From assembly GCF_001677475.2 (NCBI RefSeq), contig NZ_CP015229.1: a DNA stretch of 64,000 nt; one strand, written 5' to 3'. Made by a program: the position numbers and the translations under genes. The stretch is from Escherichia coli. Lineage in GTDB: Bacteria; Pseudomonadota; Gammaproteobacteria; Enterobacterales; Enterobacteriaceae. The notes under the pieces are model-generated. The model made no database searches. It had not been told where the DNA came from and saw only the letters and a program-made list of their open reading frames with translations. Positions 12,412-37,645 of the stretch are shown piece by piece. Each line of letters opens with the position of its first letter. Within the stretch, counting starts at the first letter, position 1.

Positions 12412-13314
12412 TTACTTAGCGCACTTCTTCACATCAATATTCCAGTTAGCACCAGACGCAACCTGATGTTTCTGCGCGAAATTAGCCATATTCAGCGCCA
12501 CGGAAACATTCAATAAGCTGTTCAGATACACCATCGGCTGTCCTTCCGGCACATCGCCGAAGCTTGCGACATACGGCATTTTCCCTGCGTATTTTTGCTG
12601 GGAACCTTCGGAAATGGTCACACACAACGTGTCGTTGAGTTTGATTCCTGCCTGATTCAGCAACTCGTCGCTGATATTGCTCCAGACGTTGCCGTACTGA
12701 ATATCGAGAATCGGGATATTGCCCTTCACTTCACCTTTTGTTGCTTTTGCTTTCTGATAAGAAAGTTCGACAACTTTTGCAGGAAGCTCTGGCCCCACCT
12801 GTTCGAACGTAATCGCCCCGGAAGCCAGACGCGCCCCTGTGTAGGCATATACATCGCGACCATGGAAGGTATATGACTTTTCGGAACCTTTCAGGCGGTT
12901 GGTTTTTTCATCGATTTGCCGGACGCTCTCAATACCCAGCGATTCCGCCACCAAAGTGAGCGTACCGTTATCCGGTGAAACGAAGTATTGACCGTTTTTG
13001 GTTTTCAGCACTACCGATTTACGGTCAGTGCCTACGCCCGGATCGACCACACTGACAAATACCGAACCTTGCGGCCAGTAGCTGGCTGTCTGATACAGGC
13101 GGTAAGCGCCTTCCCAGATGTTATACGGTGGAATTTCGTGTGTTAAATCAAATATTTTAAGATTATGGTCAACACCGAATGCGACCCCTTTCATCGCCGA
13201 GACGGCACCATCTTTCAGGCTAAAATCAGTTTGTAAAATCAAAGCGTTATCCGCATAAGCGGATGATGATCCCAGACACGTTAATAAAAATAACGTTGCG
13301 AGCGTTTTTTTCAT
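12412..13314 (-). CDS. Secreted DUF62 / SAM hydroxide adenosyltransferase (fluorinase/chlorinase)-family protein
   Basis: 300-aa ORF; N-terminal signal peptide MKKTLATLFLLTCLGSSSAYA; family-like motifs LQTDFSLKDGAVSAMKGV and ILDIQYGNVWSNI. Confidence 0.75.
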   Translation of the reverse strand: MKKTLATLFLLTCLGSSSAYADNALILQTDFSLKDGAVSAMKGVAFGVDHNLKIFDLTHEIPPYNIWEGAYRLYQTASYWPQGSVFVSVVDPGVGTDRKSVVLKTKNGQYFVSPDNGTLTLVAESLGIESVRQIDEKTNRLKGSEKSYTFHGRDVYAYTGARLASGAITFEQVGPELPAKVVELSYQKAKATKGEVKGNIPILDIQYGNVWSNISDELLNQAGIKLNDTLCVTISEGSQQKYAGKMPYVASFGDVPEGQPMVYLNSLLNVSVALNMANFAQKHQVASGANWNIDVKKCAK

Positions 13315-26035: not shown

Positions 26036-28297
26036 ATGACAATTCTTAATCACACCCTCGGTTTCCCTCGCGTTGGCCTGCGTCGCGAGCTGAAAAAAGC
26101 GCAAGAAAGTTATTGGGCGGGGAACTCCACGCGTGAAGAATTACTGGCAGTAGGGCGTGAATTGCGTGCTCGTCACTGGGATCAACAAAAGCAGGCGGGT
26201 ATCGACCTGCTGCCGGTGGGCGATTTTGCCTGGTACGATCATGTTCTGACCACCAGCCTGCTGCTGGGTAACGTTCCGGCGCGTCATCAGAATAAAGACG
26301 GTTCGGTGGATATCGACACCCTGTTCCGTATTGGTCGCGGTCGTGCGCCAACTGGTGAACCTGCGGCGGCGGCAGAAATGACCAAATGGTTTAACACCAA
26401 CTATCACTACATGGTGCCGGAATTCGTTAAAGGCCAACAGTTCAAACTGACCTGGACGCAGCTGCTGGATGAAGTAGACGAGGCGCTGGCGTTGGGTCAC
26501 AAGGTGAAACCTGTGCTTCTGGGGCCGGTTACCTGGCTGTGGCTGGGTAAGGTGAAAGGTGAACAGTTTGACCGCCTGAGCCTGCTGAACGACATTCTGC
26601 CGGTTTATCAGCAGGTTCTGGCAGAACTGGCCAAACGTGGTATTGAGTGGGTACAGATTGACGAACCGGCGCTGGTGCTGGAACTGCCGCAGGCGTGGCT
26701 GGATGCGTATAAACCTGCTTACGATGCACTCCAGGGGCAGGTGAAACTGCTGCTGACCACCTATTTTGAAGGTGTAACGCCAAACCTTGACACGATTACT
26801 GCGCTGCCTGTTCAGGGGCTGCATGTGGACCTTGTACATGGTAAAGATGACGTTGTTGAACTGCACAAGCGTTTGCCTTCTGACTGGTTGCTGTCTGCGG
26901 GTCTGATCAATGGTCGTAACGTCTGGCGCGCCGATCTCACCGAGAAATATGCGCAAATTAAGGACATTGTCGGCAAACGTGATTTGTGGGTGGCATCTTC
27001 CTGCTCACTGCTGCATAGCCCCATCGACCTGAGCGTGGAAACGCGTCTTGATGTAGAAGTGAAAAGCTGGTTTGCCTTCGCCCTACAAAAATGCCATGAA
27101 CTGGCACTGCTGCGCGATGCGCTGAACAGTGGTGACACGGCAGCTCTGGCAGAGTGGAGCGCCCCAATTCAGGCGCGTCGTCACTCAACCCGCGTACATA
27201 ATCCGGCGGTAGAAAAGCGTCTGGCAGCGATCACCGCCCAGGACAGCCAGCGTGAGAATGTCTATGAAGTGCGTGCCGAAGCTCAGCGTGCGCGTTTTAA
27301 ACTGCCAGCGTGGCCGACCACCACGATTGGTTCTTTCCCGCAAACCACGGAAATTCGTACCCTGCGTCTGGATTTCAAAAAGGGTAATCTCGACGCCAAC
27401 AACTACCGCACGGGCATTGCGGAACATATCAAGCAGGCCATTGTTGAGCAGGAACGTTTAGGACTGGATGTGCTGGTACATGGCGAGGCTGAGCGTAATG
27501 ACATGGTGGAATACTTTGGCGAGCACCTCGACGGGTTTGTCTTTACGCAAAACGGTTGGGTACAGAGCTACGGTTCCCGCTGCGTGAAGCCACCGATTGT
27601 TATTGGTGACGTTAGCCGCCCGGCACCGATTACCGTGGAGTGGGCGAAGTATGCGCAATCGCTGACCGACAAACCGGTGAAAGGGATGCTGACCGGCCCG
27701 GTGACGATTCTCTGCTGGTCGTTCCCGCGTGAAGATGTCAGCCGTGAAACCATCGCCAAACAAATTGCGCTGGCGCTGCGTGATGAAGTGGCGGACCTGG
27801 AAGCCGCAGGAATTGGCATCATCCAGATTGATGAACCGGCGCTGCGCGAAGGTTTACCGCTGCGTCGCAGCGACTGGGATGCCTATCTCCAGTGGGGCGT
27901 GGAGGCTTTCCGTATCAACGCCGCCGTGGCGAAAGATGACACACAAATCCACACTCACATGTGTTACTGCGAGTTCAACGACATCATGGATTCGATTGCT
28001 GCACTGGACGCAGACGTCATCACCATCGAAACCTCGCGTTCTGACATGGAGTTGCTGGAGTCGTTCGAAGAGTTTGATTATCCGAATGAAATCGGTCCAG
28101 GCGTCTATGACATTCACTCGCCAAACGTACCGAGCGTGGAATGGATTGAAGCCTTGCTGAAGAAAGCGGCAAAACGCATTCCGGCAGAGCGCCTGTGGGT
28201 CAACCCGGACTGTGGCCTGAAAACGCGCGGCTGGCCAGAAACCCGCGCGGCACTGGCGAACATGGTGCAGGCGGCGCAGAATTTGCGTCGGGGATGA
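26036..28297 (+). CDS. metE: Cobalamin-independent methionine synthase
   Basis: 753-aa [32 protein letters not shown]. Confidence 0.95.
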
Positions 28298-28334
28298 TGA
28301 ATATTAACGAGTCACTGTAAATTGCAGTACGATA

Positions 28335-28365
28335 ATGGCTTCCAGCACTGGAAGCCATTTTGCTA
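28335..28365 (+). terminator. metE rho-independent terminator
   Basis: Hairpin ATGGCTTCC-AGCACT-GGAAGCCAT followed by TTT. Confidence 0.6.
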
Positions 28366-28390
28366 TGTGTGCTGGGTATTAAAAGGATTC

Positions 28391-29287
28391 TCAGGAACAG
28401 AAAATTAATTGCGGATTTCTTAAATATTCCATGCACCACTGGCAGGCTTTGCCCATACCATCGGAACGAGCGGCAAGAAATAACTTGGTGGCGTGTTTAT
28501 GTTCGCGCATTGGCTTTTTAAGCAATTTACCGCTGTTTAATAATGGCAATGCCAGATGATGTGGAATATAGCCAATACCGACGTTTTGTTCTATTAAGGC
28601 GATTGCCGTAGCGAAGTCAGGAACAAAAATGGGTTTTTGTCCTTCCAACAGCCAGGCTTGCATCGGGGGAAAGTTAACGGAGGTATCGCGGATACAAACC
28701 GCCGGATAATGACGCAATTCACTGTTTTCTAATGGATGCCGCTTCGCTGCCAGTGGGTGGAGTGGGCTGACGACAAAATCCCATTCCATTTGTCCGATCG
28801 GTTCGCTAATGATGCCTTCACTGCTTGGCACTGCATGAGGAGCACCGTAGACCAGATCGGCACGCTTACTGTACAGAGCATCCCAGCAGCCGTTGTATAC
28901 CTCAAGATCAACCGTCAGCGTTGTTGATGTGAATTGCCGTTCAAAATCTCGAATAAATGCCACCAGCAAATCACCAGGAATAATATTGTTCACCGCAATT
29001 GTTAGTTCACGCTCAATACCATCGTGAATCAGCACTGTGTTGCGCTTTAATGCTTCCAGGTCGCCAAGAATAGTTTTGCTATGTTCGATGAAGTAACTCC
29101 CCGCCGGAGATAATTCAATATAGCGTCCCTTACGAATGAACAGTTCAACGCCCAGGCTCTCTTCCGCTTTCTTGATGGTGTAACTGATGGCGGAAGGGAC
29201 TTTATTTAACTGCTCGGCTGCGGTGGTAATGCTCTGGTGTCTGGCGACCAGATGAATAACACGAAGCGTTTCGTCTGAGATGAACAT
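28391..29287 (-). CDS. LysR-family transcriptional regulator (island)
   Basis: 298-aa ORF; N-terminal HTH LVARHQSITTAAEQLNKVPSAISYTIKKAEESLGVELFIR. Confidence 0.85.
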   Translation of the reverse strand: MFISDETLRVIHLVARHQSITTAAEQLNKVPSAISYTIKKAEESLGVELFIRKGRYIELSPAGSYFIEHSKTILGDLEALKRNTVLIHDGIERELTIAVNNIIPGDLLVAFIRDFERQFTSTTLTVDLEVYNGCWDALYSKRADLVYGAPHAVPSSEGIISEPIGQMEWDFVVSPLHPLAAKRHPLENSELRHYPAVCIRDTSVNFPPMQAWLLEGQKPIFVPDFATAIALIEQNVGIGYIPHHLALPLLNSGKLLKKPMREHKHATKLFLAARSDGMGKACQWCMEYLRNPQLIFCS

Positions 29288-29364
29288 AAGGCTCCCTGGT
29301 CAGTGGTAAAGTGGCTGAATCTCTCCAGATTCAGCCGTAATCATTGCTTGAGTATACTCAGGAA

Positions 29365-30588
29365 TTAGCGGCGTTGACTTGCCCGACTGAGAATCGCATA
29401 CGCGATACATGCCACCAGAATCGAGTCTACCGAAGGGATCGTCGTCAGGGTGAATAAGCCTTTGACGGTCATAAAGCCAACCGCTGCGCCTATGATCCAT
29501 GCCGCGAATGTCAGCACTTTAATCTGTGACTCCTGGGCTAACACTGACTCTTGATAGCCATTACGGCGATAAAGGAAAAAGTCAGCGATATAAATTCCGG
29601 CAACGGGTGGCGTGGCGATACCGAGGAACAGCAGAAACGGAATAAACCACGCCATAATATCCAGACTGCCTACGATGGCGGAAAGGATACCCAGCGCCAC
29701 GGTAATCTGCCATTTTGGAAAGCGGGTAAGCAGTGTGGAAACCACCAGCGTGCCCTGGAACATATTGCCCGCGTTACCGGTGACGCAGGCGAAAATCAAC
29801 AACAGCGCCGCGGGCAGAACCGCACCGAATACCGCCATAGCACCCAGTAAAGATCCCTGACCACTAATGGCGCTCGGCGTTGCACCCGCCCAGTAGAGCA
29901 GAGGGTAGGCAACCAGAAACGTCACGCTTGCGGCAATCAGCGCATGTTTGCGGTTATGCACAAAACTACCGAAATCAGGCAGTGTGGCAACCAGCACAAT
30001 AATGGTGCCAACAACGGTGGAAACGGCGACACCCGTATTCATCTCCACAATCGCCGCTGGTGCTGTCACTTCGGTATGGGTTGCCACATAGAGGATGTAA
30101 CACAGCACCAGCGCGATAACCGGCACGGCAACCTGGGCAATTTTTCCCAGAACGGCAAAACCAAATGCCGTAGAGGCGATAAAAATGACACAGCCAGCCG
30201 CCACTAACAGTGCTAGTGGAACTTCCAGTCCATGTTGAGCCAGTAAGTCATGTACCGAATGACCAAACATATTGGCGGTAACGGCAATCCAGCCGAACAG
30301 ACTTATCGCCATCAAAATGTTAATGGCGATGGCCCCTTTTTCGCCAAACGAATATTTCACAATGCCATACGTTGGCAGGCGGGCTTTTTCTCCCACGCTA
30401 ATAGTGATGGCTGAAAGTAAGGTCAGAATGACGCCGCCTAACAATACGACGCTAATTAAACTGCCGCTGGAAAGTTGATTGCCGAGGCTTGAGGATGACA
30501 ACAGCACAGGTGTGACGGCAATACCCAACAAAATCATGGCAATACGCAATCCTGATGCCGTATTCAGACTCTCTTCTTTTTTACGCAT
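29365..30588 (-). CDS. NCS1-family (CodB-like purine/cytosine-type) permease (island)
   Basis: 407-aa polytopic membrane ORF; CodB-like segments incl. GIYIADFFLYRRNGY. Confidence 0.8.
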   Translation of the reverse strand: MRKKEESLNTASGLRIAMILLGIAVTPVLLSSSSLGNQLSSGSLISVVLLGGVILTLLSAITISVGEKARLPTYGIVKYSFGEKGAIAINILMAISLFGWIAVTANMFGHSVHDLLAQHGLEVPLALLVAAGCVIFIASTAFGFAVLGKIAQVAVPVIALVLCYILYVATHTEVTAPAAIVEMNTGVAVSTVVGTIIVLVATLPDFGSFVHNRKHALIAASVTFLVAYPLLYWAGATPSAISGQGSLLGAMAVFGAVLPAALLLIFACVTGNAGNMFQGTLVVSTLLTRFPKWQITVALGILSAIVGSLDIMAWFIPFLLFLGIATPPVAGIYIADFFLYRRNGYQESVLAQESQIKVLTFAAWIIGAAVGFMTVKGLFTLTTIPSVDSILVACIAYAILSRASQRR

Positions 30589-30613
30589 AGTATGTTCCCT
30601 TTAAAAATGCGCG

Positions 30614-31003
30614 TTACACAGTATGAAAATGCCCGGTGTATTTGCGCCAGCTACCCAGTTCTGTAATTTCCCGTTGGCCTTCTGTGAGCCAGTTTTCAGC
30701 CAGTACACCGAGCACTTCGCTACCATCGGCAAGTTTGATTTTGCCTATTGCCAGCCCGGCAGGTTCGCTCATTAACAGAGCGGCAAAACTGGCCAGCGGT
30801 AGTTGCCAAATTTCTACGTCGACGTGTGTTCCACCTTCATTCACGCGAATCATTCCTGGATGGCGATCGTTAATACTCCACAGCCGGTAATGGGCGTCAG
30901 TTCTGTCTTCACGGACAAAAATGCCGCCCGCTTTTTGCATATTTGGGTTAAGTTCCAGGCCGCGCATCAGTGTTCCGTTAACGGCTAAAAGCGTTGTAGT
31001 CAT
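30614..31003 (-). CDS. Small protein resembling the allophanate hydrolase C-terminal (GGCT-like) domain (island)
   Basis: 129-aa ORF; LLAVNGTLMRGLELN...EIWQLPLASFAALLMSEPAGLAIGKIKLADGSEVLGVLAE pattern; recognised from memory of the domain, not searched. Confidence 0.5.
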   Translation of the reverse strand: MTTTLLAVNGTLMRGLELNPNMQKAGGIFVREDRTDAHYRLWSINDRHPGMIRVNEGGTHVDVEIWQLPLASFAALLMSEPAGLAIGKIKLADGSEVLGVLAENWLTEGQREITELGSWRKYTGHFHTV

Positions 31004-31019
31004 TATGTTCTCCAGAAAA

Positions 31020-31976
31020 TTAAAGGGTTATCCATGTACCGCTCTGATGCGCCAGGGCCGCTTTTATGGTTTGCGGTGAGGTAATCAGGCCGCTGGCCTG
31101 TTTGCCTTGTTGCTGGCTGGTATTGATGAAATCAACAATGGCTTCCACTTTGGGTTGCATACTGCCGACACCAAATTGACCTTCCCGCAACAGTGTTTGC
31201 GCTTCGGCAACGCTAATGGCGTCGAGCCACTGTTGTTGTGGTGTACCAAAGTTAATCGCCACTTTTTCTACTCCGGTGGGTATCACCAGCAGATCCGCAC
31301 CTAACTGACTGGCGAGCAGCGCGGAGGCCAGATCTTTATCGATCACGGCTTCCACACCTTTCAGTTGTTGCCCGTCTCGCACCACCGGAATGCCGCCGCC
31401 GCCGCAGGCAATAACCAGATATCCCTGTCGCACCAGATGAGCGATGGTGTTGTGTTCAATAATTTCCAGTGGCGCAGGAGAGGGAACCGTACGCCGCCAC
31501 CCGCGCCCGGCATCCTCCATCAGAGTCCAGCCGAGCTGCTGCTGGCGTTGTTGGGCCGTTGCTTCATCGAGAAACGCGCCAATCGGTTTACTGGGGCTGG
31601 CGAAAGCATCGTCATGTGGGCTAACTCGCGTTTGTGTCACTAGCGCAATTACCGGTTTGTTTATGCCACGGCGAGCGAGTTCGTTATGCAGCGCCTTCTG
31701 GAACATGTAGCCAATTGCGCCTTGTGTATCACCCACGGCGTAATCAAGCGGAACCGGAGAAACTTCGTTACAAGCAAGTTCAGAGCGACGCAGAATAAAG
31801 CCCACCTGCGGTCCATTACCGTGGGTTAGCACCAGATCCCATCCGGCTTCAACCATATCAACGATATGCTGCACGCTTTCCATCACTGCAACATATTGAT
31901 CGGGAATACTATTGTGTTGATCGTCTTGAATGAGCGCATTGCCGCCAACCGCGACAACAGCCAGTGGCTTAACCAT
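31020..31976 (-). CDS. Carbamate kinase (island)
   Basis: ORF 31020-32306; start at internal MVKPLAVVAVGGNAL (318 aa) overlapping the upstream gene stop by 8 nt; amino-acid-kinase fold motifs. Confidence 0.85.
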   Translation of the reverse strand: MVKPLAVVAVGGNALIQDDQHNSIPDQYVAVMESVQHIVDMVEAGWDLVLTHGNGPQVGFILRRSELACNEVSPVPLDYAVGDTQGAIGYMFQKALHNELARRGINKPVIALVTQTRVSPHDDAFASPSKPIGAFLDEATAQQRQQQLGWTLMEDAGRGWRRTVPSPAPLEIIEHNTIAHLVRQGYLVIACGGGGIPVVRDGQQLKGVEAVIDKDLASALLASQLGADLLVIPTGVEKVAINFGTPQQQWLDAISVAEAQTLLREGQFGVGSMQPKVEAIVDFINTSQQQGKQASGLITSPQTIKAALAHQSGTWITL

Positions 31977-33393
31977 GATGATTCTCCTTTGCGACGATCT
32001 CAGCCAGTGCACGTATAGCGGCGACAAAACAGGCCATCGGCGCAGTGGTGATCCCGGCACCAATTTGCCCGACTCCCGCTTGTTTGTGGGCGATACCCGT
32101 ATTGATGACCGGTAAAATGCCGCGATCGGTAACTTTACGCGCATCAATCCCTGCTGCGGTGGGGGCAAAATTGAGGGCAGGAAGTGTAAATGCGGGGTTA
32201 CCGCCGAGGGTGATTGCCTGCATCCGACGGCTGTTATTGGTGGCATCGGCAGGTGTGCCTCCCACAAATTTAACGATTGCCGGAGATGACGCCATCGCGA
32301 AGCCACCTACACCAGCGGTTTCGGTAATTGCGCTATCGCCCAAGTCAGCAGCGGCGTCGTCAACGCCAAATCCAGGGAAGAACAGACCTTCAACTGCATT
32401 GGCGGGAGCCTGGAACCAGCGATCGCCAGTACCGGAAAGCCGAATACCAAAATTCACCCCGTTACGCGCCATCACCGTAACCATTGAACTGAACGGTACA
32501 TTGGCGGCGGCATCCATCATTGCTTTACAGGCAGCCATCGACAGATTGAGGAAGAAGTGATCGTTACCGGTGATAAATGCTACGACGCGCTGGATATGTT
32601 CCTGTGGAAGAGAGCGGGCCAGCAATGCCGGGATCAGACGCTTAATCAGCAAACCGGTAGCGGCAGCATTGCGGTTATGAACTTCATCCCCCATATGTAG
32701 CGCCTGCGCCATTAATGGCTTGAGTTCCAGCTCGCCGTGTTGTGCGATTGCTGCTTTCATTGCCGGAGCCAGTTCATCGCGCATCCAGGCCAGACGATTG
32801 AGAACTTCGTCGTTATTGGCGCCAAAACGGAGAACCTTACCCAGACCTTCATTGAAATTACTAAAAGTACGATGACCGTTGGTTTTATTTTCCACCACCC
32901 ATAACGGCATTGACGGGCTGATGATGCCTGCCATTGGTCCAACCGCGTGATAATGATGACAAGGGGCAAGGTCGATTTCGCCTGCGTTTATCTGGTTTTC
33001 TGCGTCTTGCTGGCTGGTGGCCCAACCTTCGTACAGCATGGCACCAATAATCGCCCCTTTTACCGGACCACACATCTCTTCCCAGGTAATCGGCGGGCCA
33101 GAGTGCAAAATACGTTTTTGTTCAGCCATTGCTGGAATGGCCTCTTTAGCGAGCATGACATCCACCAGCACGGGCTGTGCTTCGAGATAACGTGTCATGG
33201 CGATTTGGTTGGCATTTTCTACCAGTGGATGACGTAGCAACGATGCCAGATCCAATCCAGCGTCAATATCGCCTTGTGCTGGTGGCTGCCAGTTGAGTGC
33301 AATTGCGCTTCCCCCGGCATGTTGAATATTGTCAGCAAAACTGTGTAGTCCCGCGTTCACGACCTTCAAAGACTGATTAAATAAGGTATTCAT
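31969..33393 (-). CDS. DUF1116 protein, YahG/YlbE-like (island)
   Basis: ORF 31969-33444; start at MNTLFNQSLKVVNAG (474 aa) forms ATGA overlap with FdrA-like stop. Confidence 0.8.
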   Translation of the reverse strand: MNTLFNQSLKVVNAGLHSFADNIQHAGGSAIALNWQPPAQGDIDAGLDLASLLRHPLVENANQIAMTRYLEAQPVLVDVMLAKEAIPAMAEQKRILHSGPPITWEEMCGPVKGAIIGAMLYEGWATSQQDAENQINAGEIDLAPCHHYHAVGPMAGIISPSMPLWVVENKTNGHRTFSNFNEGLGKVLRFGANNDEVLNRLAWMRDELAPAMKAAIAQHGELELKPLMAQALHMGDEVHNRNAAATGLLIKRLIPALLARSLPQEHIQRVVAFITGNDHFFLNLSMAACKAMMDAAANVPFSSMVTVMARNGVNFGIRLSGTGDRWFQAPANAVEGLFFPGFGVDDAAADLGDSAITETAGVGGFAMASSPAIVKFVGGTPADATNNSRRMQAITLGGNPAFTLPALNFAPTAAGIDARKVTDRGILPVINTGIAHKQAGVGQIGAGITTAPMACFVAAIRALAEIVAKENHHG

Positions 33394-34949
33394 GCGTTTA
33401 GCCCCTTTTTCTGCAACTGAGTCTGTGCAACGGTGCTGGCCCATAGCGCCGCCTGTGCATTGCTGCTGGCGATGATGACCCCTGCATTTTGTAGTGCGCT
33501 TATCTGCTGGCTGCGTATTTGCGGATCAGCTTCCGTTCCGCAAACGTGCGCAATCAGCAACGGTGCGTTATTCATGTCGATGTGTGAAAGTTGGTCCAGT
33601 AATTCGCTGGCAGGCGTCGTGGAAGCGCCATAACCAAGTACCAGGTCGAATAACACGACGGCAGTGTGTGAGTCGTTGAGTTCGTTGAGCAGACGTTGAT
33701 TGCGCAGAGTCGGATCGATCATTGGATGCGGTTTGCCACGGGTGAAATCATCGTCGCCCATATCGATCAACGTGTGATCTTCGCTTTGCCAGATATTTGC
33801 CAGAGCACGATTACCCGCAACTGGCGTATTGGAAGCTGCGCTGAATCCCTTTTGTTGGCAGATAAGTTGCGCTTCGTAGCAGAAGGTTCCTCCGGCGAAA
33901 ACACCGCGTATCGCCTGGCGATGGGCTGGCAGGCGCTGGCAGGCGTTTTGTAACATTGTGAGATCGTCGCAGGGTACATCGGTTTCGACAGCCGGAAATG
34001 GCTGAGCATTCAGTAACGCCACAGCGATGTCGGCGGCGCTGGCAAGTGTGGTGGCGGCAGTGATATTGGGACGTGCCAGATCATGCGGATTCGCCCCGAG
34101 GAAATTCACCACCACGGGTTTTCCACAAGCCTCGGCGCGCTCCAGAATAGTCCGGGCAACGATCGGTGAAGGCGGTTTTGAAATAAGCACAATCACGCGA
34201 GTTTCATCGTCTTGCGCCAGCGCATCTAAAGCGAAGAGCATCGATATTCCACTAATCTCTTCACTGAGATCATGTCCGCCTGTTCCCAACGCCTGAGAAA
34301 TACCCGCTCCGAGCTGGTCGATTCGGCAAGTCACTTCCTGTAGCCCGGTGCCTGACGCGCCAATAACACCAATCGCTCCACGTTTCACCACATTGGCGAA
34401 GCCTAACGGAATGCCGTTAACGATGGCGGTTCCACAGTCAGGTCCCATTACGATGCGCTGACGTTCTCGGGCAAGTGTTTTGATGGATTTTTCCTGCGCG
34501 ATACTGACGTTATCGCTGAACATCATCACGTTCATTCCGAGGTTTAACGCTTTAATTGCTTCGGCGGCGGCGTAGTCTCCCGGTACAGAAATGAGTGCCA
34601 GGTTGGCTTCGGGTTCGGCTTCCAGTGCCATTTCCAGGCTGACCTTTTCCGGTGTTTTAATGCCACTACCCGTTTCATCATCGGGTTTGCTGGTCAGACG
34701 TTGCTGGGCCAGTACCAGTGCTTCATTGCAAATATCTTCTTCACCCATGACTGCAATCACTAAATCATTGGGACTGGCGTTGATTTCGTTACCCAGACCC
34801 ACATCGCGCAATTGTTCGAGATTATTGGGTGTTCCCATGACGACCGAAGCCTGTTGAATACCGGGCAATTTGCTGATTTGCGCGGAAATCTGCATCAGAG
34901 AAACCGAGTCCTGATAAAGATTGCTGAGAACTTTATGTTTAACTTTCAT
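33390..34949 (-). CDS. FdrA/YahF-like protein (succinyl-CoA-synthetase-alpha-like CoA-binding fold) (island)
   Basis: 519-aa ORF; GxGxxG-type glycine-rich segments VIGASGTGLQEV, LGTGGHDL. Confidence 0.8.
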   Translation of the reverse strand: MKVKHKVLSNLYQDSVSLMQISAQISKLPGIQQASVVMGTPNNLEQLRDVGLGNEINASPNDLVIAVMGEEDICNEALVLAQQRLTSKPDDETGSGIKTPEKVSLEMALEAEPEANLALISVPGDYAAAEAIKALNLGMNVMMFSDNVSIAQEKSIKTLARERQRIVMGPDCGTAIVNGIPLGFANVVKRGAIGVIGASGTGLQEVTCRIDQLGAGISQALGTGGHDLSEEISGISMLFALDALAQDDETRVIVLISKPPSPIVARTILERAEACGKPVVVNFLGANPHDLARPNITAATTLASAADIAVALLNAQPFPAVETDVPCDDLTMLQNACQRLPAHRQAIRGVFAGGTFCYEAQLICQQKGFSAASNTPVAGNRALANIWQSEDHTLIDMGDDDFTRGKPHPMIDPTLRNQRLLNELNDSHTAVVLFDLVLGYGASTTPASELLDQLSHIDMNNAPLLIAHVCGTEADPQIRSQQISALQNAGVIIASSNAQAALWASTVAQTQLQKKGLNA

Positions 34950-35043
34950 GCTGTTACGCCTGTTTCATTCCGCCCGATAGTAAAATTCGGGCAAAGCATC
35001 CCCGTGTAGCGCCATAAATGAGCTACAGGAGAAAAGGTTGAAA

Positions 35044-35904
35044 TCAATTCATGGTGTTCAGGGTTCGAAAGCCATGCAGCATTCCTGCAAGGCAATCCAC
35101 TCCTGACGTTGCGCCAAATTGCATGACCTGTTCTGCACAGGATGCGATTGTCATTGCCGATGCGCCCCCAACCAGTTGTGCGAGTAACTGGCAAATCGGT
35201 TCTGAAAAATGCCCCCGAAGCGCACGCTCCAGATAATGACGACTGATGTCAGTGGTGTTGTGCGCATGTTGATCAATTGCCTGCTGCAACCGGTATTGAT
35301 GAGCGGCAAGTGGTGCAGGTAGTTGCCATAACCAGAGCGCTGCCAGATAGCCCAACAAATAGTCATCTCCATCGGGAGTTAAGCCTTTGCCAAAGCCGAT
35401 CAGTTGTGGCACCTGGCGTTCCAGCGCATCTGGATGTTCCATAATCTCTAATCCCTGGTGCGTGAGACTATCCGGCAGGTGCAATGTGCTTTGAACGTTA
35501 TGCTCCAGACAAAATAAAAGCCGTTGCGATGCCATCGTTGGGTAGTGCTGGAAAACCAAAGGGAACGCCTCAAGTGTCAGCCTTCCTCCCACAAATGACG
35601 GCTGCCAGAGCGTTGCGTTATCGAGAGCCACACAAAAGCGAGGTGTCTGCAGCAAGCCTGGGGTTAACTGAACGGGATCGGAATGGGCAATCTCTCTTCG
35701 CCAGTCCCAACGCTTAGGCAGCCAGACTCTGGCAGCATCAGGGAGATTCAGATACGTTTGCGCACACAACAGGGTGATGAATGTTCCCGCTTCTGAATAC
35801 AGATTTACCGCATGTTTAAAAGCACTGTGCAGACGTAAATCTTGCGTTTCATTCCACGGGAAAAGATATCCCAACGACGATGCGCAAAGCGTAACCTGTA
35901 CCAT
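35044..35904 (-). CDS. DUF2877 protein, YahE/YlbF-like (island)
   Basis: 286-aa ORF located where yahE/ylbF sit relative to FdrA-like genes; 5-nt gap to upstream gene. Confidence 0.65.
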   Translation of the reverse strand: MVQVTLCASSLGYLFPWNETQDLRLHSAFKHAVNLYSEAGTFITLLCAQTYLNLPDAARVWLPKRWDWRREIAHSDPVQLTPGLLQTPRFCVALDNATLWQPSFVGGRLTLEAFPLVFQHYPTMASQRLLFCLEHNVQSTLHLPDSLTHQGLEIMEHPDALERQVPQLIGFGKGLTPDGDDYLLGYLAALWLWQLPAPLAAHQYRLQQAIDQHAHNTTDISRHYLERALRGHFSEPICQLLAQLVGGASAMTIASCAEQVMQFGATSGVDCLAGMLHGFRTLNTMN

Positions 35905-35909
35905 CGGTG

Positions 35910-36578
35910 TTAGCCTTCCAGGCCTGCAATAATGGCTTTGGAATCAGTAACCCAACCGAAAATGGCACCTTGTGCTTTGATCATCTCCAGGGCGTATTTC
36001 TGGAATTCCGGGAAATAGGAGCCAACGCAATCTTCCGGGATGATGCACTCATAACCACGATCATTCGCTTCGCGCACGGTGGTGGTCACACAGACTTCCG
36101 TGGTTACTCCGCAAACAATCAGCGTTTTGATGCCGTGGTTTTGCAAAATCAGATGTAAGTCGGTTTGATAAAAAGCGCCTTTGCCGGGTTTATCAATCAC
36201 CGGTTCGCCTGCGACCGGGTACAGTTCAGGAATGATGTCATGACCTGCTTCACCTCTGACCAGAATGCGCCCCATCGGGCCTGCTTCACCAATAAAGGTT
36301 TTACCGCCGCGCGTCAGTTTGGCTGGTGGGCAGTCGCTTAAGTCTGCACGATGGCCTTCACGGGTATGAATAACCATAATTCCTTTTTGACGTGCGGCTG
36401 CCAGCACCTCTGTACATGGAGCGATAGCCGTGCGTACCAGTGAAACATCATTGCCCAGTGCCTCACCGAAGCCCCCTGCTTCGACAAAGTCACGCTGCAT
36501 GTCGATCATGACCAGTGCAGTTGTGCGCGGATCAAAAGGTAATTCAAAGGGTTGAGCCTGAAAAATGGATTGCGTCAT
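35910..36578 (-). CDS. Isochorismatase-family cysteine amidohydrolase (island, first gene of operon)
   Basis: 222-aa ORF; LVMIDMQRDF, conserved Cys in LIVCGVTTEVCV; good SD GGAGA upstream. Confidence 0.8.
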   Translation of the reverse strand: MTQSIFQAQPFELPFDPRTTALVMIDMQRDFVEAGGFGEALGNDVSLVRTAIAPCTEVLAAARQKGIMVIHTREGHRADLSDCPPAKLTRGGKTFIGEAGPMGRILVRGEAGHDIIPELYPVAGEPVIDKPGKGAFYQTDLHLILQNHGIKTLIVCGVTTEVCVTTTVREANDRGYECIIPEDCVGSYFPEFQKYALEMIKAQGAIFGWVTDSKAIIAGLEG

Positions 36579-36665
36579 GGTAAATCTCCTGTCTGATGTT
36601 TAAACGATCCAGTTGTTCTGAGAACGAGTATTCAGGAGAAAAGCGGCACAAAACAGGAAAAAAGT

Positions 36666-36772
36666 TTGCCGCACAGCAACGAAATTTTTGCATTCAGCAG
36701 GCGGCGTGATGACGAATGTGAAGGGGGTCAAATCGTGGCATACAGCAACAAAATTTTTGATGCTGTATGGTT
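36666..36772. promoter_or_regulatory. Island operon promoter/operator region with two copies of a palindromic motif (ACAGCAAC-R-AAATTTTTG) 70 bp apart
   Basis: Direct reading: copies at ~36673-36692 and ~36743-36762; second copy within 9-bp inverted repeat CATACAGCA-N13-TGCTGTATG. Confidence 0.4.
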
Positions 36773-36835
36773 TTGAGTTTAAAAAAATCGTTGAAATTGT
36801 GTGAGCTTAAGCACCTGAGTTAGCTGCTATGGTGG

Positions 36836-37645
36836 TTATTTTTTAACACCATACTGCTTAAACCACTCCAGCATACGCTGCCAGCCATCTTTTGCAGATG
36901 CGGCATGATAGCTCGGGCGATAATCAGCGTTGAATGCATGCCCGGCGTCCGGGTACACGATAATCTCTGCTTTCGCATTAGCAGCCCGCAGCGCCTGGCG
37001 CATGGTTTCAACGCTCTCCTGCGGAATGCTGTTATCCTGACCACCATATAAGCCGAGAACCGGCGCGTTAAGATCGGTTGCGATATCAACAGGTTGTTTC
37101 GGTGAATTCAGCGACTTATCGCCTGTCAGTTTGCCGTACCATGCCACCGCCGCTTTCAGTTGCGGGTTATGCGCAGCATACAGCCAGGTGATACGTCCAC
37201 CCCAGCAGAATCCGGTGATCATTAAACGATGAACATCGCCGCCGTTGCGGGAAGCCCAACTGGCGACATGATCGAGATCGGCCAGCACCTGCGAGTCAGG
37301 CACTTTTGCTACCAGACCGCTAAGCAACGTGGGGATATCGGCAAAATCATTCGGATCGCCTTCGCGGAAGTAAAGTTCAGGTGCGATAGCCAGATATCCC
37401 TCCAGCGCCAGACGGCGACAAATGTCGCGGATATGTTCATGCACGCCAAAAATTTCCTGCACTACAATGACCACTGGCAGTGGGCCATCGCTTTGCTTTG
37501 GTCTGGCATGGTAAGCAGGCATGTTATCCCCTTGTGAGGGGATAGAGGTGAAGCCCGCCGCAATCGCGTCGTCCGGGGTCTGAACGATGGTCGAAGCGAG
37601 AGGCGATGCAGCAGGTGCAAATCCAGATTGTTGTGTTGTTGCCAT
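36836..37645 (-). CDS. ysgA: Dienelactone hydrolase-family protein YsgA
   Basis: ORF 36836-37711; start at MATTQQSGF; alpha/beta hydrolase. Confidence 0.85.
   Translation of the reverse strand: MATTQQSGFAPAASPLASTIVQTPDDAIAAGFTSIPSQGDNMPAYHARPKQSDGPLPVVIVVQEIFGVHEHIRDICRRLALEGYLAIAPELYFREGDPNDFADIPTLLSGLVAKVPDSQVLADLDHVASWASRNGGDVHRLMITGFCWGGRITWLYAAHNPQLKAAVAWYGKLTGDKSLNSPKQPVDIATDLNAPVLGLYGGQDNSIPQESVETMRQALRAANAKAEIIVYPDAGHAFNADYRPSYHAASAKDGWQRMLEWFKQYGVKK

Follow-up and report, generated by a model that had tools for sequence, protein, structure and literature searches.

The metE–ysgA locus

The 64,000-nucleotide stretch of Escherichia coli DNA considered here (the window; RefSeq assembly GCF_001677475.2, contig NZ_CP015229.1) carries a gene cassette in the gap between metE and ysgA. 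This article examines the genes of the cassette, their relatives in other bacteria, and the ureide-degrading pathway that they may encode. Eight intact open reading frames (ORFs) lie between positions 28391 and 36578, all on the minus strand, all beginning with ATG and all free of internal stops. The first gene of the operon encodes a cysteine hydrolase of the isochorismatase-like family, putatively of the TrtA type (35910-36578; 222 amino acids, aa). It is followed by genes for an AllH-like subunit (DUF2877; 35044-35904; 286 aa), an AllF/FdrA-like subunit (33390-34949; 519 aa) and an AllG-like subunit (DUF1116; 31969-33393; 474 aa), referred to below as the trio. Next come a carbamate kinase (31020-31976; 318 aa), a stand-alone allophanate-hydrolase C-domain, or AH_C protein (30614-31003; 129 aa), an NCS1 permease (29365-30588; 407 aa) and a LysR-type regulator (28391-29287; 298 aa).

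The hydrolase and AllH genes are separated by 5 nt (35905-35909), the start codon of the AllG gene overlaps the AllF stop codon in the sequence ATGA (33390-33393), and the AllG and carbamate kinase genes share 8 nt, ATGGTTAA, at 31969-31976; the remaining intergenic gaps measure 94, 16, 25 and 77 nt. RefSeq-supported starts are used throughout; a mechanical ORF listing begins further upstream for AllG (491 aa) and the kinase (428 aa). The same eight genes are annotated by RefSeq in other strains. An earlier sequence-only reading of this DNA had described the cluster with these coordinates, overlaps and gap, all of which are present, and its protein family assignments are borne out by NCBIfam, Pfam and PDB sequence searches. 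It had also proposed a single eight-gene operon. Eight tightly packed genes do exist, but because the 77-nt gap precedes the LysR gene and the position of this gene varies in other taxa, the regulator is probably its own transcription unit, leaving a seven-gene operon plus regulator.

A TrtA-type hydrolase

The best match of the hydrolase in a PDB sequence search is Herbaspirillum TrtA (6XIX/6XJ4; 271 bits); two biuret hydrolases rank below the TrtA structures (BiuH 6XJM, 235 bits), and RutB ranks far below (101 bits). Identity to the characterised TrtA is 59%. That enzyme converts triuret to 1-carboxybiuret, and its activity on biuret is ~10^5-fold lower (PMC7948467). Thirteen diagnostic positions, comprising the catalytic triad, substrate-binding residues and six residues that discriminate TrtA from BiuH, were taken from Tassoulas 2020 (PMC7948467). 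The window hydrolase is TrtA-type at all 13 (D24, F29, F35, N41, E72, K129, K132, A134, E160, C162, Y187, Q202 and I205). These include the equivalents of the Asp-Lys-Cys catalytic triad of the isochorismatase-like fold (D24, K129, C162) and the discriminators F35, N41, A134, E160, Y187 and I205, together with Q202. The full residue set recurs in 74 of 75 complete cassette-type hydrolases drawn from E. coli, orthologue and 80 species loci, the sole exception being a single conservative A134S change. The BiuH pattern (Y35, Y41, S134, D160, T187, V205) was seen only in the second hydrolase of other clusters.

Against the NCBIfam BiuH model (NF050097; cut-off 370 bits), the window protein scores 279 bits, a real TrtA 256 and a real BiuH 410; against the RutB model (TIGR03614), it reaches 109 bits versus a cut-off of 378. 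Identity as BiuH was rejected on the score, which lies below the curated cut-off, and on the TrtA-type residue pattern, and identity as RutB, with the pyrimidine function that this would imply, on scores and residues. The hydrolase is classified from its sequence as TrtA-type rather than as a generic isochorismatase, BiuH or RutB, and its predicted reaction is the conversion of triuret to 1-carboxybiuret and NH3. Unlike in characterised TrtA organisms, biuH and atzF lie neither in the cassette nor beside it.

The AllH/AllF/AllG trio and carbamate kinase

All three subunit families of the AllFGH (oxamate carbamoyltransferase, OXTCase) family are encoded together. The AllH-like protein matches Pfam PF11392 (AllH; E=7e-27), the AllF-like protein matches the NCBIfam FdrA subfamily model (495 bits versus a cut-off of 433) as well as Pfam CoA_binding and Ligase_CoA, and the AllG-like protein matches PF06545 (AllG; E=2e-98). 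As the sequence-only reading had correctly stated, fdrA-ylbE-ylbF (allFGH) encodes oxamate carbamoyltransferase, a phosphorolytic enzyme whose substrate is oxalurate (Kim & Kim 2024, PMC11326118); for the K-12 OXTCase, all three subunits are reported as necessary for activity.

The AllF-like protein is 42% identical to YahF and 40% to AllF, and the AllG-like protein 46% to YahG and 49% to YlbE; for the AllH-like protein, the values are 26% for YahE and 32% for YlbF, the latter over a 111-residue local alignment. The two K-12 sets (yahEFG and allFGH) are mutually 38-45% identical. The cassette genes are not orthologous to K-12 allFGH, being no nearer to it than to the yah set and differing from it in gene order and locus. 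By these identities, the trio is placed as a third lineage, roughly equidistant from both K-12 paralogue sets and with the yah gene order. This agrees with the third paralogous module that had been proposed (40-49% identity of the AllF- and AllG-like proteins to both sets, 26-32% for AllH). The carbamate kinase passes both the TIGR00746 equivalog model (365.5 versus 358.25 bits) and PRK12352 (375.6 versus 266 bits), and is 48% identical to YahI and 39% to AllK.

AllH is the least conserved gene of the cassette (median identity 41%), and some lineages lack it. In Serratia microhaemolytica and Caballeronia spp. (loci L024, L046, L048, L050, L052), the hydrolase and AllF genes lie too close together to accommodate it, while in Phytobacter, Kosakonia and Aeromonas (L064-L077, L088) it is encoded divergently upstream. 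Many environmental homologues are AllF-AllG fusions, single proteins of ~1000 aa (P0123, P0127, P0129, P0130, P0133, P0136; L095), and one environmental protein of 721 aa joins only the Ligase_CoA domain to AllG. The contigs of P0123 and P0126 are too short for gene context; both do show the AllF-AllG fusion. The fusions give independent support to the view that AllF and AllG act as one enzyme.

AH_C protein, permease and regulator

The AH_C protein matches residues 472-595 of the 600-residue allophanate hydrolase model, with 105 bits versus a cut-off of 487, and thus corresponds to the C-domain only; the cassette contains neither an amidase gene nor an N-terminal amidase-signature domain. A 98%-identical homologue and all orthologues carry the Pfam PF21986 assignment, and the protein is 100% identical to an orphan structure, PDB 5C5Z (from 2015). 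Homologues with 62-84% identity occur across Beta- and Gammaproteobacteria. Most conserved C-domain positions are kept in the stand-alone protein; the His of the GAHL motif of both crystallised allophanate hydrolases (4GYR/4ISS) is Thr in 15 of 15 aligned stand-alone AH_C proteins. Fan et al. are said to have assigned, in 2013, the decarboxylation of N-carboxycarbamate to the C-domain of allophanate hydrolase. AH_C may decarboxylate an N-carboxy intermediate. A role as TrtB was rejected, the known TrtB belonging to the AtzH/HpxZ family.

The best NCBIfam match of the permease is CodB (NF008241), with 148 bits and hence below the cut-off of 326; its orthologues carry Pfam Transp_cyt_pur, so that membership extends only to the wider NCS1/Transp_cyt_pur family. 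The permease gene adjoins the AH_C gene in 54 of 59 complete species loci, and the protein is predicted to import the substrate of the pathway. The regulator belongs to the AllS/PunR/YahB group of LysR proteins (PunR model 287 bits, cut-off 345; AllS 215 bits), with 35% identity to YahB and 34% to AllS.

These matches bear on a pyrimidine-based explanation, which was put forward speculatively when the same region was listed in 2026 as GR29 of strain BEN2908 (PMC12928451). Here, the cassette would break down pyrimidines or ureidoacrylate, with the hydrolase as a RutB analogue and the permease as a cytosine/uracil importer. The nearest K-12 proteins are indeed RutB and CodB (31.8% and 26.5% identity; PMC12928451), and the permease family carries pyrimidines. 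Such a function is nevertheless very improbable: the hydrolase misses the RutB cut-off by far and matches BiuH/TrtA-type references with 279 and 271 bits, its active-site pattern is TrtA-type, the CodB score falls short as well, and neither a RutA-type oxygenase nor any other Rut gene is linked to the cassette.

Conservation across species

An alignment-based scan for AH_C, with one genome per species, found relatives in 440 stretches; the counts given here are from the best 80 loci. Hydrolase, AllF, AllG, kinase and AH_C genes are all present in 59 of these 80 and colinear in 57, and the NCS1 permease is included in 54, AllH in 51 and LysR in 49. The loci come from Enterobacterales, Burkholderiales, Neisseriales, Xanthomonadales, Vibrionales, Alteromonadales, Aeromonadales, Halomonas and Alphaproteobacteria. 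With this conservation and colinearity spanning dozens of genera, the cluster lies far beyond anything expected by chance. Its most conserved gene is that of the hydrolase (median identity 84%). Neither BiuH, nor an amidase-type allophanate hydrolase, nor urease was found beside those cassette loci whose neighbour genes were inspected.

AH_C also occurs without the trio. A translationally coupled operon in Verrucomicrobia (L066, 6508-10399) encodes a porin-like protein, a TrtA-type hydrolase, a permease, a true BiuH (417 bits), a Cupin_7 protein and AH_C; the 365-aa and 530-aa products look like porin and permease by sequence only. This operon has no amidase-type allophanate hydrolase, and Cupin_7 together with AH_C might constitute an unrecognised route of allophanate disposal. 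The neighbourhoods of cyanobacterial AH_C loci (L083, L090, L091) were uninformative.

Sister modules and the substrate of the trio

A search with an AllG alignment provided 80 metagenomic AllG loci for examination. An isochorismatase-like hydrolase is encoded in 27 of them, and in all 27 it is TrtA-type; BiuH-type hydrolases occur only as a second copy, in 7 loci, and never alone. This links AllFG to the product of TrtA and not to that of BiuH. In one class of loci, a full-length allophanate hydrolase (802 and 799 bits; cut-off 511) is encoded divergently from AllF-AllG-kinase. Three of these loci continue with a TrtA-type gene and a permease gene, and none of the class has BiuH, so that allophanate must arise there without BiuH.

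A third, likewise independent line of context evidence comes from a plasmid-borne module (L149/L177; NZ_MG252895.1, 187977-198056) that encodes a 411-aa hypothetical protein, cyanuric acid amidohydrolase (AtzD), an NCS2 permease, DUF2877, FdrA, DUF1116, carbamate kinase and LysR. The genes shared with the chromosomal cassette are in the same order, and their products are 79% (AllG), 66% (AllF), 71% (kinase), 66% (LysR) and 35% (AllH) identical. Where the cassette has TrtA, AH_C and an NCS1 permease, this module has a bona fide AtzD (579.5 bits versus a cut-off of 360) and the NCS2 permease. The module resides on conjugative IncC/IncR plasmids (e.g. pEsco-36073cz) and on other plasmids, where it is flanked by IS26/IS66. 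It matches 582 Enterobacterales plasmid records, 518 of them from Klebsiella, and 47 match over at least 80% of its length; identical copies are found in Raoultella, Klebsiella, E. coli, Citrobacter and Enterobacter. No published function was found for this module in the literature searched, and its 411-aa protein has no Pfam or NCBIfam match. Similar pairings occur elsewhere: the closest AllG representative outside the cassette, in a library of 1.8 billion proteins, directly follows an AtzD-family gene (L094: AtzD-family-AllF-AllG), and in contig L165, AllG is followed by an AtzD-family gene.

TrtA and AtzD both produce 1-carboxybiuret (PMC7948467). These two unrelated enzymes share only this product, and on that account the trio is inferred to act on carboxybiuret. 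A single additional NH distinguishes 1-carboxybiuret (H2N-CO-NH-CO-NH-COO-) from the near-isosteric oxalurate (H2N-CO-NH-CO-COO-). Comammox gene clusters with allFGHK lack trtB, the gene for carboxybiuret decarboxylase, whereas clusters of ammonia-oxidising bacteria without allFGHK have it (PMC12625717); the absence of trtB fits consumption of carboxybiuret by the trio.

The trio could also be an ordinary oxamate carbamoyltransferase that acts on oxalurate, with a hydrolase that either makes oxalurate (e.g. from oxaluramide) or serves a separate substrate. Oxalurate is the substrate of the sole characterised family member (PMC11326118), RefSeq names the AllH-like protein after oxamate carbamoyltransferase, and co-located biuH/trtA and allFGHK were read as two separate pathways by the authors of PMC12625717. 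We consider this improbable. Identity of the trio to allFGH (40-49%) does not exceed that to yahEFG, and the allantoin regulon does not include it; the hydrolase carries every TrtA diagnostic residue; no gene that could supply oxalurate, such as one for ureidoglycolate dehydrogenase, is linked; and neither the AtzD-for-TrtA swap nor the pairing with allophanate hydrolase makes sense for oxalurate.

Proposed pathway

The cassette can be read as a self-contained system for the catabolism of triuret (carbonyldiurea), or of a very close linear polyureide, in which energy is kept via carbamoyl phosphate. From the gene content and comparisons above, we put this at about an even chance. The NCS1 permease would import the substrate, and the TrtA-type hydrolase, judging from its 59% identity and 13 of 13 residues, would attack a terminal amide (triuret + H2O -> 1-carboxybiuret + NH3). 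The AllH/F/G trio would then cleave the terminal carbamoyl-N bond by phosphorolysis (1-carboxybiuret + Pi -> carbamoyl phosphate + allophanate), as its paralogue does with oxalurate; belief and doubt are evenly balanced for this specific reaction, which comparative genomics and gene context suggest. Carbamate kinase would transfer the phosphate to ADP (carbamoyl phosphate + ADP -> ATP + carbamate), and the carbamate would decay to NH3 and CO2. The broader proposition, catabolism of a triuret-type polyureide with ATP gain linked to carbamoyl phosphate, is likely. The interpretation given in the sequence-only reading is supported overall, and among its candidate substrates the biuret/allophanate-like class came close to the one favoured here, triuret degraded via 1-carboxybiuret.

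Several routes are conceivable for the allophanate that would be formed. Sister clusters would dispose of it by means of their full-length allophanate hydrolase. In the cassette, the trio may act twice (allophanate + Pi -> carbamoyl phosphate + carbamate), the cysteine hydrolase may deamidate allophanate with AH_C decarboxylating the resulting N-carboxycarbamate, or allophanate may be decarboxylated with release of urea.

A number of points weigh against this scheme. We know of no allophanate enzyme in E. coli, and without a second action of the trio or the hydrolase, nitrogen recovery would therefore be incomplete. The chemistry of AH_C may differ from that of the C-domain, because the His of the GAHL motif is Thr in the stand-alone proteins, and the plasmid AtzD module lacks both AH_C and AtzF. 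Some Caballeronia and Serratia cassettes have no AllH, though it is necessary for the K-12 OXTCase. Identity of the hydrolase to TrtA is only 59%, and its substrate could have shifted despite identical diagnostic residues. 1-Carboxybiuret decays spontaneously with a half-life of ~20 min (PMC7948467), so that what is really consumed could be biuret. Triuret levels in gut or urine are, moreover, poorly known.

Alternatively, the trio could act one step later, on allophanate (giving carbamoyl phosphate and carbamate), or on the decay product biuret (giving carbamoyl phosphate and urea), with AH_C as carboxybiuret decarboxylase, analogous to TrtB, and a hydrolase that takes both triuret and biuret. 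Every protein then has a job, and in the allophanate version all nitrogen would be recovered with no urea formed. One natural hydrolase is known to accept both triuret and biuret, Verrucomicrobia operons couple AH_C tightly to BiuH, and carboxybiuret decarboxylates spontaneously. The arrangement remains doubtful. A neighbouring full-length allophanate hydrolase would be redundant if the trio consumed allophanate, and would have no allophanate to act on if the trio consumed biuret. Further, the 80 metagenomic AllG loci never pair the trio with a BiuH-type hydrolase alone, the characterised TrtA has ~10^-5 relative activity on biuret, and the known TrtB is of the AtzH/HpxZ family, not AH_C.

Another N-carbamoyl or ureido compound, for example a host- or diet-derived acylurea, could be degraded by the same sequence of hydrolysis, phosphorolysis and ATP formation. 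Only one family member has been assayed so far, yahEFG is uncharacterised, and the cassette occurs in very different habitats (gut, soil, sea). This is unlikely, since it would make mere coincidences of the exact match to the TrtA residues and of the independent replacement by AtzD.

If phosphorolysis of 1-carboxybiuret is retained, a generalisation suggests itself, which is offered tentatively and with somewhat more doubt than confidence. The AllH/F/G clade would be an undescribed 1-carboxybiuret:phosphate carbamoyltransferase served by exchangeable feeders, TrtA where the source is triuret and AtzD where it is cyanuric acid, and would enable bacteria to ferment polyureides derived from urate oxidation or triazines with substrate-level ATP gain.

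Promoter region and regulation

The presumptive promoter/operator region (36579-36835, minus strand) comprises the 257 bp that precede the hydrolase gene. Within it lie a 31-bp palindrome (36739-36769), a direct repeat of 18 nt (36673-36690 and 36742-36759) and a -10-like AATACT (36632-36627). Dyads and a TATACT/AATACT box are also kept in front of the hydrolase orthologues of at least six further enterobacterial genera, including Citrobacter, Edwardsiella, Buttiauxella, Serratia and Rahnella. As the cassette has a LysR gene, the dyads are probably LysR binding sites, from which the regulator would turn on the operon. The Verrucomicrobia AH_C cluster adjoins a sigma-54 NtrC-type regulator, a neighbour that hints at nitrogen control. 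An Rfam scan of 28000-37200 (E<=0.1) found no riboswitch or small RNA, and promoter and terminator scans returned fewer matches than shuffled sequence and nothing useful within the operon.

Distribution in Escherichia and origin

Only 39 bp lie between metE and ysgA in K-12, with none of the eight genes, as the sequence-only reading had stated; its view that the locus varies between strains also holds, the module being found in 1554 of 5426 complete E. coli genomes (~29%). The short form seen in the window, where LysR follows metE directly, occurs in 362 complete genomes. Other carriers, such as NRG857c, have a tkt1/phosphotransferase system (PTS)/hxlB/tssD segment inserted between metE and LysR. 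In the long form of NRG857c (L092, 17810-18943), the tssD (Hcp) gene beside metE is a pseudogene with an internal stop.

The region is the right half of the 16-kb 'tkt1 genomic island' of avian pathogenic E. coli (APEC) O1 and B2 extraintestinal pathogenic E. coli (ExPEC; Li 2012, PMC3349570), and whole-island carriage reaches 80-94% in B2 uropathogenic and neonatal meningitis E. coli (PMC3349570). The tkt1 island and GR29 share with the window the metE–ysgA site and the same eight genes (APECO1_2632-2639); B2 strains carry a tkt1/PTS IIBC/hxlB/tssD half between metE and LysR, which the window lacks. No function or substrate has been assigned to the cassette in the searchable literature. The earlier remark that substrate and pathway appear undescribed holds; the region itself had already been catalogued as tkt1 island and GR29.

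At the left junction (28295-28390), similarity to the empty K-12 site extends no further than the metE stop codon. Positions 28334-28361 hold a terminator-like hairpin, and the different 39-bp spacer of K-12 has a hairpin of its own. At the right junction (36836-36850, minus strand), K-12 homology resumes within the last five codons of ysgA. Because the junction falls within ysgA, the C-termini of its products differ, reading ...QYGVKK* in module-bearing genomes and ...QYGGKKSL* in K-12 and other empty-site genomes. No flanking repeats or mobility genes were seen at the module, and its GC content is 51.6% versus 52.3% for the window.

The best identity to any of the 5426 complete E. coli genomes is 96.5% for the window metE and 97.2% for the module; the window as a whole is ~96% identical to E. 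coli throughout, flanks and module having diverged alike. By this divergence, the window comes from a lineage outside E. coli in the strict sense, possibly a cryptic Escherichia clade. A Citrobacter genome has the module at the identical metE–ysgA site. Together with the equal divergence of module and flanks, this speaks for a module long inherited vertically and repeatedly lost, rather than one acquired recently. Recent horizontal insertion is unlikely, given the lack of mobility genes and repeats, the GC content near that of the window, the flank-like divergence and the same-site module in Citrobacter.

Traces of the module also occur on plasmids. A truncated LysR pseudogene, a 190-nt 3' fragment 92.7% identical to window positions 28404-28594, adjoins IS1 on plasmid pGF4-A (17593-17799; L093), and plasmids of complete E. 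coli genomes match the module at 129 places. Both observations suggest that the module, or its end, was formerly plasmid-borne. Elsewhere in the window, a 300-aa minus-strand ORF (12412-13314) directly after uvrD is the positional counterpart of the NRG857c gene for a 'SAM hydrolase/SAM-dependent halogenase family protein'.

Physiological significance

Triuret forms from uric acid through peroxynitrite and other oxidants, and is found in human urine (PMC7948467). If the proposed pathway is correct, triuret would supply E. coli, which is urease-negative, with NH3 and ATP independently of urease; this would explain why the module is retained in urease-negative enterics. Should host oxidative stress make triuret, inflammation would be linked to a private source of nitrogen and energy for carrier strains. 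In B2 ExPEC, the long island form is over-represented (PMC3349570). Transposon sequencing (TnSeq) of the Crohn's-associated, adherent-invasive E. coli strain NRG857c scored the carbamate kinase NRG857_19070 as a gut fitness gene (PMC8016931); by extrapolation from tags and coordinates only, this is probably the kinase of the island (NRG857_RS19505, 4.047 Mb).

The cassette is among the commonest unexplained accessory loci of pathogenic E. coli. New here are the TrtA-type feeder, the proposal of 1-carboxybiuret as the substrate of an AllFGH-type enzyme and the plasmid-borne, AtzD-fed sister module; the locus and the family annotation were known already. If confirmed, the scheme would add a new activity to the recently discovered AllFGH family, and triuret and cyanuric acid would be degradable with ATP gain and not by hydrolysis alone. 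It would give a function to a gene block that is widespread on clinical resistance plasmids, and would correct the reading of nitrifier allFGHK as 'oxalurate catabolism'. Of its two versions, the chromosomal one is enriched in extraintestinal pathogenic and adherent-invasive E. coli, and the other resides on multidrug-resistance plasmids of Klebsiella and relatives. The substrate and reaction scheme make the function directly testable with commercially available chemicals.

Comparison with known systems

The K-12 allFGH-allK system (Kim & Kim 2022, 2024) consists of the same three families plus a carbamate kinase and an AllS-group LysR regulator, and the presumed chemistry, phosphorolysis of an N-carbamoyl compound followed by ATP formation, is also the same. 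The two are paralogous, not orthologous: AllH is encoded last in K-12 and first of the three in the cassette. The cassette lies outside the allantoin cluster and adds a TrtA-type hydrolase, AH_C and its own permease, with 1-carboxybiuret rather than oxalurate as predicted substrate. The K-12 yahE-yahF-yahG-yahI(-yahJ) cluster has the same order of DUF2877, FdrA-like, DUF1116 and kinase genes, with a hydrolase gene attached and a LysR gene (yahB) nearby. Its products are 26-48% identical to those of the cassette; its hydrolase YahJ is a metal-dependent amidohydrolase whereas that of the cassette is a cysteine hydrolase, and it has neither AH_C nor an NCS1 permease.

The plasmid AtzD module has the orthologous trio, kinase and regulator in common with the cassette. 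It differs in its feeder (AtzD, not TrtA), in its permease (NCS2, not NCS1), in the lack of AH_C, in the extra 411-aa protein and in being mobile. Clusters of comammox Nitrospira and ammonia-oxidising archaea (mSystems 2025) likewise place a TrtA/BiuH-family hydrolase beside the trio and kinase, sometimes with a codB-like permease; these clusters also hold BiuH and full-length AtzF, and have been read as two pathways without a link to E. coli. In the triuret pathway of Herbaspirillum sp. BH-1 and Rhizobium (TrtA, (TrtB), BiuH, AtzF; Tassoulas 2020), the first enzyme is of the same type and the same intermediate, 1-carboxybiuret, is expected. In place of BiuH, TrtB and the amidase domain of AtzF, the cassette has the trio, a kinase and a free AH_C; the Herbaspirillum/Rhizobium pathway is purely hydrolytic, whereas the route encoded by the cassette would be phosphorolytic and ATP-yielding.

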